A stretch of DNA of 28,177 bases from a virus (lineage: Duplodnaviria; Heunggongvirae; Uroviricota; Caudoviricetes), in the IMG/VR virus record IMGVR_UViG_2563366895_000004; one strand, written 5' to 3'. Of the stretch, positions 1,574 through 3,196 are shown one piece after another (within the stretch, counting starts at the first letter, position 1; the number at the start of each line of letters is the position of its first letter). The translations under genes and the position numbers were made by a program. The notes under the pieces were generated by a model. The model saw nothing but the letters and a program-made list of their open reading frames with translations. It searched no databases and was not told the DNA's origin.

Positions 1574-1625
1574 TACTTAATGACTGGGACTTCAGACCAC
1601 TCAATATCCGGTACAATTATGTATC
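1574..1625 (-). pseudogene. Degenerate tfa (tail fibre assembly) 3'-end remnant, copy A
   Basis: Minus-strand translation gives '...PDIEWSEVPVIK*' with an in-frame stop just upstream. Nucleotide similarity to copies B and C. Confidence 0.45.
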
Positions 1626-2329
1626 AACGCAGTTTAACAACACCCTATATTTAATCCAGAGTGCGAGCAACGTTGTCCCTTTCTCTTTTGCACTCTTAAA
1701 ATATACGATTACTTAAGTGAAGATGCTTGACGAATCGCCAAATAAAACATCTTCATCAGCATAAAAATCCATATATGATTGAAAATTTAGTCATTAATAC
1801 CATTCATATCTGAATACTGACCTAATATGCTTACTAACCGTGAGAAATCTTTTTTTCGACTTAATCACTCGAAATAAACTTTCACTCAATTGAAAACAAT
1901 TAGCTACAATTATCATTGCAATATCAAATCAAACATAACAACTTGCATAAATTCTCATGGGATACAGCATCAGTTGTGCCAAACACATAAGGAATTGAAA
2001 TGGACGGAGAAAGCTTTAACTTTGATGACAATGATATTGAATTTATTGCTTCAATGTATGCATCATGTAAATTATCAGGAAGTATCGCCCCCATAATGCA
2101 TATAATGGTTAGCATTCCAAGAAATAAGAAAAAACAATTCTACGAACGAGTTGAGCATTATTGTAGTTTATATTCCAATAAAAACCCACCTTCTTAAATT
2201 CGCTGCATTCTAGTGGATTCCATTAAGAAAACAATGACATACACTCAAACATATCTTTTTTATCAACAGTGAATTTCAGTTCGGCCAGTTTTTACCAGCT
2301 ATTATAAAAATAGCATCCATATAAAGTTT

Positions 2330-2428
2330 TTACCCCACAGGTACAGCTGGCCATTCGATAACCGCACTAAGGAAGTGCCAACACGATATCAGCAAGACCC
2401 GATATTTCTTCCATGCCGCCAGCAACGA
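2330..2428 (-). pseudogene. Degenerate tfa 3'-end remnant, copy B
   Basis: Minus-strand translation '[32 protein letters not shown]', matching the conserved Tfa C-terminus (recalled lambda Tfa '...[30 protein letters not shown]...'). Upstream sequence is AT-rich and non-homologous. Confidence 0.55.
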
Positions 2429-2900
2429 TGTTAAGGTTAAATTAATTATAAAAAAATATATTATAATTCCATCTTCGCATTAAATTTTAACCTTTAATCT
2501 CCACACGGAACAAGTTGCATAGGTGACTATATTAGGAAAACTTATAACCACCAAAACATTTGCTTTGCAAACAAAAACAGTGACCATTGACTCTAAGAAA
2601 ATTCCGATCTATTGTTAGGGTCATCAAAGTTACTTAACAGTATTCCGAAATGAAAATACAAAGCAAGCTAATTGTCTTATTAAACATTATCATTGCATTT
2701 ATATTATTTGAGCTTTTAGCTCAAAAATTTGGTTTGAGTACATTATTTTAAAGCAAGATAAACAATATCGGGCACTCTAGTTTTTATAATTAACAATTAA
2801 ACGTCCATAAAATGTTATTTACTTTTGTTCGCTATTGTCATATCTTAATATAGTGGCTTACGCCACTCTACTTTCATCACATTTTGTACGTTTATGTACT

Positions 2901-2932
2901 CGCCATGAAGCTCTTTCATGGCGATTTTTTAT
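2901..2932 (+). terminator. Rho-independent terminator (plus strand)
   Basis: Perfect 9-bp stem 'cgccatgaa'/'ttcatggcg' with a 5-nt loop, followed by 'attttttatt'. Confidence 0.6.
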
Positions 2933-3016
2933 TCTTAATCCAAGAACATACTCCCTACCTATAGCAAAATCACTTTTTGAACAAAAGAATAACGTATTTA
3001 GGTAATCATTACGAAT

Positions 3017-3196
3017 TTACCCTATAGGTGCTACTGGCCATTCAATATCCGGTGCAGTTGTTGTATTAACACGGTTCAGCAACACCCGATACTTTTTCCA
3101 GGCTTCCAGCAACGAGTTTTCTTCCTCCGTTGCGATTTCCAGCTCAACAACAGTCTGAACGTACCAGGAACAGCCTCCTTCAGGGCTTGAAGGATA
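3017..3196 (-). pseudogene. tfa 3'-end remnant, copy C, directly after and in frame with the tail-fibre stop codon
   Basis: Minus-strand translation after the stf TGA: '[59 protein letters not shown]'. The last roughly 40 residues match the conserved Tfa C-terminus. There is no room for a Tfa N-terminus. Confidence 0.65.

Follow-up and report, generated by a model that had tools for sequence, protein, structure and literature searches.

Three tfa 3′-end segments alternating with small AT-rich cassettes at the right end of a Qin-like lambdoid prophage

The window, i.e. the whole stretch of viral DNA analyzed here (28,177 nucleotides; IMG/VR record IMGVR_UViG_2563366895_000004), begins with a truncated ydfJ gene (1–1284), which in matching genomes is annotated as a pseudogene with a missing N-terminus. 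Beside it lies the right-end arm of a defective Qin-like prophage of Escherichia coli (1285–1519, minus strand), 88.9% identical to the end of Qin of strain K-12 (window 1198–1543 aligned with 3200–3552 of locus L002). This is followed by a hairpin (1520–1573, minus strand; CCGCAGAAACGTT...AACGTTCTGCGG) with a predicted fold of -22.7 kcal/mol (z -2.1); it has no U-run and is thus not a canonical intrinsic terminator. The hairpin is located directly downstream of the first of three minus-strand segments related to the 3′ end of the tail fibre assembly gene tfa – stub A (1574–1692), stub B (2330–2434) and stub C (3017–3160) – which are separated by cassettes BA (1693–2329) and CB (2435–3016). 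Stub C is joined through a short, weakly tfa-like linker (3161–3196, minus strand) to a tail-fibre open reading frame of 1193 codons (3197–6778, minus strand). K-12 Qin (ydfK-pinQ-tfaQ-stfQ) shares the ydfJ integration site and the 89% identical terminal arm, but the two sequences diverge completely beyond window position 1543 (blastn). Unlike the window, Qin carries intact tfaQ, pinQ, ydfK and ynfT genes and contains neither stubs A and B nor cassettes CB and BA.

Exactly three tfa 3′ stubs were found in the window, and blastn, tblastn, Pfam, an Rfam model and a repeat finder agreed on them. In blastn comparisons with K-12 tfaQ, stub C showed 92.7% identity over 109 nt (E 2e-40) and stub B 76.5% over 102 nt (E 1e-8), while stub A matched annotated tfa genes of thousands of E. 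coli genomes at 72–78% over ~122 nt. A tblastn search of the window with the TfaQ protein gave matches only at 3160–3026, 2428–2339 and 1691–1620 (E 2e-17, 1.8e-5 and 2.7e-4, respectively). When locally aligned with the last 105 nt of tfaQ, A, B and C scored above all of 500 shuffled sequences (z = 21.6, 27.9 and 48.7, respectively). The three segments are homologous to the tfa 3′ end, and they lie in direct orientation downstream of the tail-fibre gene, as a preliminary description of this DNA had proposed. That description ended stub A too early (at 1625 instead of 1692); stub B spans 2330–2434, and within the stretch 3017–3196 assigned to stub C, positions 3017–3160 are securely tfa-like and 3161–3196 partly so. 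It had also proposed progressive decay, which is not borne out: stub C is recent, but B and A differ from intact tfa genes to about the same degree (~75–78%).

None of the stubs contains a full-length Tfa reading frame (~190 aa) with the N-terminal part. Of the 131 positions of the Caudo_TAP profile (PF02413), stub C retains 87–130, stub A 95–130 and stub B 101–130. With a cut-off of 22.1 bits, C (66.8 bits) and A (38.5 bits once one frameshift was corrected) are above the threshold; B (19.6 bits) is just below it, yet is backed by the nucleotide match and by tblastn. Stub A corresponds to the last ~119 nt of tfa, and its conceptual product reads ...TTLLALWIKYRVLLNCVDT/IVPDIEWSEVPVIK up to the stop. 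Stub B comprises the last ~105 nt and appears to carry two indels that compensate for each other; PGAP labels a copy with 94% identity, found in another prophage (L007), as a frameshifted, incomplete tfa. In strain HN257 the same pipeline annotates 3017–3148 as an incomplete tfa pseudogene. The three stubs are tfa remnants and not genes. Such remnants account for unannotated tfa-like matches and for pseudogenes named “incomplete tail fiber assembly protein”.

The small RNA family IS009 (RF02111) is matched at all three sites (E 3e-21, 1.6e-7 and 1.9e-5), and stubs A and B are 92–94% conserved between diverged relatives, i.e. more than some flanking DNA. The stubs could accordingly be read as functional RNA or regulatory elements, such as late-operon terminators, maintained by selection. 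The scores (92.3, 40.8 and 33.1 bits) are, however, all below the gathering score of 117, whereas the K-12 matches to IS009 are placed within the coding sequences of tfaD and tfaQ (228 and 221 bits), which suggests that the family was modelled on tfa coding sequence. Moreover, the stubs are frameshifted and of unequal length, and DNA outside them is equally or better conserved (95.7% for 1693–1999), as mosaicism predicts. We consider a functional RNA very unlikely.

In K-12 Qin the invertase gene pinQ adjoins tfaQ, so the stubs might be what is left of a Pin/Gin-type invertible segment with alternative sets of fibre ends and tfa genes. Segments of this class (Mu G, P1 C and e14 P) adjoin a gene for a serine invertase (Gin, Cin or Pin) and are bounded by inverted crossover sites. 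Searching the window with PinQ (tblastn) gave no match at E ≤ 0.01, in agreement with the earlier observation that the window contains neither a pin invertase nor an intact tfa. All stubs lie on the minus strand, in direct and not inverted order, and no alternative fibre C-termini are found beside them. None of the inverted repeats involves a stub: the eight pairs listed are short, AT-rich and located elsewhere. The direct orientation and the missing invertase contradict this reading, which is exceedingly improbable. Likeness to gix, hix or pix crossover sites was judged by eye, and nothing convincing emerged.

The tail-fibre reading frame encodes a Peptidase_S74 domain (PF13884; 48.2 bits, cut-off 22) at aa 1050–1101 of 1193 (~nt 3476–3631), and its homologs are named S74 family peptidase by PGAP. 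The reading frame starts with a fused piece of the terminase large subunit gpA, with a Pfam GpA_ATPase match at aa 40–110; no contiguous match to the fusion junction (~6468–6471) exists in the 5,426 complete E. coli genomes. Domains of the S74 type (“chaperone of endosialidase”) act as intramolecular chaperones, so the fibre is predicted to need no Tfa. Such self-chaperoning would explain the absence of an intact tfa.

Alignment with strain 2017.03.02CC, which carries an intact tfaQ, revealed that the window is identical to this gene from CTGGAAATCGCAACGG through the stop codon. Local alignment of stub C with tfaQ extends to ~3160, and the Pfam match begins at residue 14 (~3157); the adjacent linker differs from tfaQ, but is identical in the S74 modules of the window and locus L007 and near-identical in that of L010, and thus moves with the fibre module. 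In these three prophages, a common fibre end and upstream stub piece are followed by three different tails of the tfa 3′ box. Stub C is therefore chimeric: the crossover falls within the conserved tfa 3′ end, either at an invariant stretch of 23 nt or immediately downstream of it (the 24-nt CTGGAAATCGCAACGGAGGAAGAA is invariant at 23 of its 24 positions). The resident fibre tip, along with most of an intact tfaQ, gave way to an S74 fibre tip that already bore a tfa stub. The S74/stub junction region (3130–3270) is present at 1,381 places in 805 genomes, as well as in phages PhiR70_1, mEp460 and Ayreon. Within one invariant stretch, an S74 tip with a dead tfa end has undergone recombination with resident tfa ends of at least three kinds, a base-level example of host-range module swapping among lambdoid phages.

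The cassettes between the stubs are AT-rich, as had been described, with 31% (BA) and 29% (CB) GC against 40–50% in the stubs and 47–48% in the flanking genes. The accompanying statement that they lack intact genes has to be revised, since each contains a small plus-strand ORF, opposite to the stubs, with pN/pS below 1. In BA this is orf65 (2000–2197), a hypothetical protein (WP_001421370.1 in PGAP) whose relatives found were E. coli hypothetical proteins only; a homolog of equal length occurs in strain ETEC6333 (L006), with pN/pS of 0.36. CB encodes the hydrophobic 33-aa product of orf33 (2650–2751), too short for a protein search; L004 and the phages PhiR70_1 and ev099 share this ORF unchanged, and its pN/pS is 0.16 in comparison with L007. 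Neither ORF matched a Pfam or PHROG family, and both keep their length in diverged relatives. A strong terminator (2900–2934; z -5.8 for the region) is placed downstream of orf33, and a promoter-like site (2587–2615) upstream of it, although such sites are no commoner here than in shuffled sequences. Phage morons are self-contained units with a promoter, an ORF and a terminator of their own, deviate from their neighbours in base composition and are located between late genes and att; the two cassettes are candidates for this class. CB is also found behind tfa in phages ev099, mEp332 and PhiR70_1. The possibility that the cassettes represent decayed upstream parts of tfa was rejected, as the DNA upstream of A and B, compared with the rest of tfaQ, scores within the range of shuffles.

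The stubs form a direct three-copy repeat family with spacings of 755 and 687 nt, a regularity that would fit tandem duplication of a ~700-bp unit made up of a tfa end and a spacer, with the copies diverging afterwards. Only the boxes repeat, however: self-comparison and a repeat search found no similarity between the two spacers, which contain unlike ORFs and occur independently of each other in other prophages. The lack of homology refutes tandem duplication, and its probability is close to nil.

Of the 5,426 complete E. coli genomes, 582 contain the segment composed of stub A, cassette BA and stub B (coverage of at least 80%). In strain 2017.03.02CC – the sole examined carrier of this segment that has an intact tfaQ – the 582-bp gene precedes a CB-B-BA-A block with 99.3% identity to that of the window, likewise in ydfJ. 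The array was therefore inherited and not assembled in the strain of the window, and the notion that it was built stepwise in the present prophage had to be abandoned. The cassettes also occur apart: L007 contains CB and stub B but not A; ETEC6333 carries BA and A behind a different tfa stub; and L004, L010 and L011 have CB without stub B. Identity of the window with L006 and L007 shifts in blocks of 100–300 nt, from 67% to 100%, which indicates repeated recombination. Strain L008 was rejected as an intermediate containing only stub A, because a 1,189-bp deletion joins window positions 1660 and 2850 in this strain.

The lengths of tfa stubs vary (~105, 119, 117–130, 144–180, ~150 and 450 nt), as would not be expected of recombination at a fixed site. 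A common breakpoint of A and B at CGTTGCT, which would have pointed to a site-specific mechanism, was dropped, as stub A reaches 14–26 nt further (according to the Rfam alignment, blastn and the repeat family) and other stubs differ in length. At the junctions of A and B, no microhomology and no empty-site pair came to light; the later patchwork of recombination may have erased the original ones. Among the E. coli matches listed, none was an intact tfa whose 3′ end is of type A or B (at least 90% identity), and the phage loci examined contain neither type, so decay of the stubs is inseparable from descent from unsampled lineages.

Repeated replacement of the receptor-binding module at the tfa 3′ end had been suggested for the whole array. 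The alignment bears this out for stub C; for A and B, what was exchanged may have been a cargo cassette alone. The array might thus record cargo acquisition and not module replacement, with small cassettes situated between tfa 3′ boxes moving among phages by recombination in the boxes, and the stubs persisting as portable homology arms. Box-bounded cassettes are indeed combined variously in L006, L007, the window, K-12 DLP12 and PhiR26_1, a crossover within a box is demonstrated for C, and a stub is always present on the S74 module. On the other hand, identity breakpoints also fall outside the box borders, and CB occurs without its distal box in three loci. We regard such shuffling as rather unlikely to be the explanation of the array, although it overlaps with module replacement and does not exclude it. 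A related idea, still tentative but slightly better placed, is that the tfa 3′ box serves as a portable right-hand homology arm, a docking site for the receptor-binding modules of lambdoid phages (Tfa-independent ones such as S74 fibres included) and for small cargo cassettes, and is thus more than a passive scar. If this were true, modules and cassettes would keep a stub in order to recombine into any tfa-bearing phage, stub-punctuated arrays would form at prophage ends, and the system would be a homologous-recombination counterpart of a cassette array.

Module replacement probably offers the best account: A, B and C would be non-functional scars of three successive tfa genes, left on the right, tail-fibre/b-region side of a lambdoid, Qin-like prophage that occupies ydfJ. 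The tfa end nearest to the prophage terminus, stub A, is probably the oldest and still has a hairpin attached. The stub together with the hairpin (1520–1659) resembles the 3′ end and hairpin of tfaD of K-12 DLP12 (77% over 144 nt, E 7e-16). Stub B and the resident tfaQ (the present stub C) would have come later, each bringing its own AT-rich downstream cassette with a small, putatively independently transcribed opposite-strand gene (a candidate moron); judged by position, the order would be A, then B, then C. The formation of A and B presumably involved a homologous crossover upstream and an illegitimate one downstream. The A-BA-B-CB block may then have spread as a unit downstream of intact tfaQ. 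The last exchange, in the lineage of the window, would have been homologous: an S74 fibre tip with an already truncated tfa took the place of the resident tip and of some three quarters of tfaQ, and the right-hand crossover fell within the tfa 3′ region, either at the invariant stretch or immediately downstream of it. As the locus shows, small opposite-strand genes accumulate between tfa stubs at the right ends of such prophages.

Haggard-Ljungquist et al. and Sandmeier et al. reportedly described, in 1992, mosaic exchange of fibre and tfa genes among λ, P2, Mu, P1 and p15B. Receptor-binding modules are said to be exchanged horizontally there by crossing over within conserved segments of the fibre and tfa genes; the cases reportedly involved intact genes and invertible segments, and not tandem dead 3′ stubs interleaved with cargo. 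By analogy only, the orphan C-terminal modules of rhs and cdiA polymorphic toxins are comparable, as displaced gene ends accumulate downstream and record replacements. These orphans keep a variable functional tip and an immunity gene, whereas tfa stubs keep only the conserved 3′ end and have lost the specificity-determining parts.

The lambdoid phages PhiR26_1, 2G7b and ev243, recorded with laboratory E. coli hosts, show that stub-punctuated cargo arrays exist in deposited phage genomes. Their order is stf, tfa or a stub following another fibre/chaperone set, an opposite-strand ybcY, a tfaX-type stub, an opposite-strand hydrolase gene with ompT, and int; 2G7b and ev243 have a stub already in the first tfa position, next to a fibre module of another kind, comparable to the S74 case in the window. 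They differ from the window in having other cassettes and two stubs, the second being an internal fragment without the extreme 3′ end. A cross-species pattern scan yielded 44 loci, with two same-orientation boxes in E. albertii and E. coli DLP12-type loci only (a weak survey, with loci not centred on the match). Many of the 44 are identical lambda-like fragments on low-coverage contigs of unrelated taxa, and probably represent contamination.

The layout is already known from the right end of K-12 DLP12 (tfaD-ybcY-tfaX-appY-ompT), so the array is no new kind of system. There, tfa is also followed by a tfa fragment in the same orientation, with opposite-strand cargo in between; the fragment consists of the annotated tfaX ORF and a frameshifted 3′ stub that runs past it. 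Upstream, a deletion has linked the terminase fragment aaaD with the tfa region, resembling the gpA–fibre fusion of the window. DLP12 differs in having two copies instead of three, other cargo (the methyltransferase gene ybcY, and appY) and a tfaX stub of ~125–150 nt. A literature search found no description of tandem tfa stubs. By their titles, the publications matching “tfaX” apparently concern promoters or promoter islands.

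The window opens within ydfJ (minus strand, 1-1284), a gene that matching genomes list as a pseudogene truncated at the N-terminus; a defective Qin-like prophage of the lambdoid group comes next. Its terminal arm (1198-1543) shares 89% identity with the end of K-12 Qin, and Rfam models identified a cspA-type thermoregulator (9200-9585), a sok antitoxin RNA (16910-17084) and DicF (23371-23422) deeper in the window, which fit a Qin-like prophage backbone. The array of tfa 3′ ends is bounded on one side by the end of the prophage and on the other by the tail-fibre gene (3197-6778, minus strand).

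Five independent methods bore out the proposal of the preliminary description that the minus strand carries three segments from the tfa 3′ end. The three sites stood as described and their borders were revised: stub A spans 1574-1692 (conceptual product TTLLALWIKYRVLLNCVDT, a frameshift, then IVPDIEWSEVPVIK and a stop codon), stub B spans 2330-2434, and stub C is secure only over 3017-3160. In blastn comparisons with K-12 tfaQ, stub C showed 92.7% identity over 109 nt (E 2e-40) and stub B 76.5% over 102 nt (E 1e-8). Local alignment with the last 105 nt of tfaQ gave z scores of 21.6 (A), 27.9 (B) and 48.7 (C), each exceeding 500 of 500 shuffles. The only tblastn matches of TfaQ in the window were at 3160-3026, 2428-2339 and 1691-1620; PinQ, YdfK and K-12 StfQ gave no tblastn match there. 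The Pfam model Caudo_TAP scored 66.8 bits for C, 38.5 bits for A after correction of one frameshift, and 19.6 bits for B, the last being below the cut-off of 22.1 bits. A repeat search of the window recovered a three-copy direct repeat family with spacings of 755 and 687 nt, and a scan of all 28 kb for the conserved tfa 3′ end (the box) found no fourth copy. The Rfam model RF02111 (IS009) also matched the A, B and C sites. This model is entered in Rfam as a gene; its above-threshold matches in the K-12 comparison loci (228 and 221 bits; L009 7857-8055 and L002 5345-5543) fall wholly within the tfaD and tfaQ coding sequences, so that it probably represents tfa coding sequence, not a small RNA, and it was used here as a tfa 3′ detector.

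The two spacers, CB (2435-3016) and BA (1693-2329), have a GC content of 29-31%, compared with 40-50% for the stubs. They show no similarity to each other, which rules out tandem duplication as the origin of the array. They had been described as lacking intact genes, but each contains a small plus-strand ORF. In CB, a hydrophobic ORF of 33 codons (orf33, 2650-2751; MKIQSKLIVLLNIIIAFILFELLAQKFGLSTLF) lies between a promoter-like site and a strong terminator (2900-2934, z -5.8), forming a self-contained small plus-strand cassette (2587-2934). Its product may be a small membrane protein or a toxin-like peptide. Identical copies of orf33 occur in locus L004 and in phages PhiR70_1 and ev099. The ORF of BA (orf65, 65 codons, 2000-2197) is annotated by PGAP as a hypothetical protein; its relatives found are E. 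coli hypothetical proteins only, and it matched no Pfam or PHROG family. Length is unchanged both in the diverged orf33 copy of L007, a prophage adjoining sitABCD, and in orf65 of strain ETEC6333 (L006), with pN/pS values of 0.16 and 0.36, respectively, which lend modest support as each comes from one diverged comparison. Judged from sequence, each spacer looks like a small cargo cassette on the opposite strand. The non-coding segment upstream of orf65 (1693-1999) is 95.7% identical to L006, versus only 78% for orf65 itself; the jump suggests that a recombination breakpoint coincides with the start of the ORF, or else that the segment includes a conserved element, either regulatory or an RNA.

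The origin of stub C could be traced in an alignment of six tfa 3′ regions. The intact tfaQ of strain 2017.03.02CC (L003) and the window are identical from CTGGAAATCGCAACGG through the stop codon and into the DNA that follows; on the upstream side of CTGGAAATCGCAACGG, the window agrees instead with the fibre modules of S74 type in L007 and PhiR70_1. The three S74 modules have a common upstream part followed by three different box tails, which places the exchange points either at a stretch of 23 consecutive invariant columns or immediately downstream of it (23 of the 24 nt of CTGGAAATCGCAACGGAGGAAGAA are invariant in all six sequences). Stub C thus documents directly that homologous exchange took place in the conserved 3′ region of tfa. 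The match to the S74 modules takes in a short, diverged tfa piece that can be translated; the incoming module already carried a truncated tfa, and its arrival turned an intact tfaQ into a stub. The S74/stub junction (3130-3270) was found at 1,381 places in 805 genomes, as well as in phages PhiR70_1, mEp460 and Ayreon. According to Pfam, the fibre carries a Peptidase_S74 "chaperone of endosialidase" domain. Such domains are intramolecular chaperones, and self-chaperoning by the predicted domain would explain why Tfa is not needed. The fibre ORF itself is an in-frame fusion (junction ~6468-6471), in which gpA, the large subunit of terminase, supplies the first ~105 aa (GpA_ATPase at aa 40-110) and the Stf N-terminal repeat region follows. 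This fusion indicates that the whole block of head and tail genes has been deleted. Since the junction was found as one contiguous stretch in none of 5,426 complete E. coli genomes, the deletion is apparently private to this strain.

The array itself is widespread: at least 80% of the region 1285-3300 is present in 577 of the 5,426 genomes, and the A-BA-B part in 582. At the same ydfJ site, L003 carries an intact 582-bp tfaQ followed by a CB-B-BA-A block of 99.3% identity, so the array predates the loss of tfaQ and was not assembled in the strain of the window. The feature described earlier is real, and the notion of repeated replacement of the fibre tip and tfa is broadly right, except that the array was inherited and its spacers appear to be small cargo cassettes.

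The cassettes were also found separately in other loci. In L007, an S74 fibre is followed by a tfa stub, CB in diverged form and a stub of B type (94% identical). Between this last stub and a copy of the terminal arm, within L007 2975-5040, lies an MFS efflux gene of the Bcr/CflA family, in the slot taken in the window by stub A and the orf65 cassette. The fibre set of ETEC6333 is a different one; behind it come a tfa stub, a BA homolog, a stub of A type (92%) and the hairpin. CB lies downstream of tfa or a stub, without B, in L004 and in phages ev099, mEp332 and PhiR70_1. Among the E. coli matches listed, the high-identity copies of A and B type are unannotated remnants, and no intact tfa had such a 3′ end at 90% identity or more. 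The array can also shrink by simple deletion, as in strain 2014EL-1345-2 (L008), where the loss of 1,189 bp joined window position 1660 to 2850 (L008 5104/5105), so that, behind an intact tfaQ, stub A now directly abuts the part of CB with the terminator.

Three loci, L006 (4609-4660), L010 of PhiR70_1 (4651-4702) and L011, a further comparison locus (4510-4561), have a piece of ~50 nt resembling a tRNA or tmRNA 3′ end, with the tfa/cargo region on one side and an AraC-family regulator on the other. This piece has the appearance of a scar left by an earlier attachment site within the phage b-region.

Stub A adjoins the prophage terminus. Together with its hairpin (1520-1659) it is 77% identical (E 7e-16) to the end of K-12 tfaD and the downstream hairpin, and thus looks like a tfa end that has kept its original downstream DNA. 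With the order read from position only, A would be the oldest stub, and B would be the 3′ remnant of a tfa that came in later together with the BA cassette. Stub lengths vary between loci (about 105, 119, 117-130, 144-180, about 150 and 450 nt), which speaks against a site-specific mechanism with a fixed breakpoint; A and B at first seemed to stop at one and the same nucleotide, but closer analysis did not bear this out. Identity between the window and L006 or L007 shifts from 67% to 100% in blocks of 100-300 nt, indicating that later recombination has overwritten much of this history. Read by eye, a stretch of 21 nt in L006 (~5700-5735; CCGAAGTGTAATTCATTAGAA) corresponds exactly to the extreme 3′ end of the L007-type tfa, and a weaker version (~14/20 nt) just downstream of stub B (~2262-2295) may be a fourth micro-remnant of tfa.

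The K-12 reference genome already has this architecture in its annotation: the genes of DLP12 run nohD, aaaD (a terminase fragment), tfaD, ybcY (opposite strand), tfaX, appY and ompT, where tfaX is a tfa fragment whose frameshifted 3′ stub runs beyond the annotated ORF. Deposited phages carry an intact version of this layout: PhiR26_1 (recorded host K-12 MG1655) has stf, tfa, ybcY (opposite strand), a tfaX-type stub, and hydrolase and ompT genes (both opposite strand). In phages 2G7b and ev243 the stretch examined additionally ends with an integrase gene, and the first of the two tfa copies is also a stub, preceded by a different fibre/chaperone set. E. albertii has two boxes in the same orientation, ~1 kb apart. 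Literature searches found no paper on tandem tfa stubs as such. Classical work from 1992 by Haggard-Ljungquist and by Sandmeier reportedly describes mosaic exchange of fibre/tfa modules at conserved segments. The array is an ordinary product of lambdoid mosaicism. Its layout, here with three stubs, is one that K-12 and deposited phages already have. The crossovers in C and the constant pairing of S74 module and stub are consistent with stubs serving as portable homology arms for the exchange of modules and cassettes; that they are kept for this reason is a rather doubtful proposition.

Identical lambda-like tfa 3′ ends, each 92% identical to tfaD over 147 nt, were also present in many low-coverage contigs from unrelated taxa (L016-L058; Streptomyces, Bradyrhizobium, Vibrio, Chromatium and others), and most likely reflect contamination of these assemblies with lambda or E. 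coli DNA.
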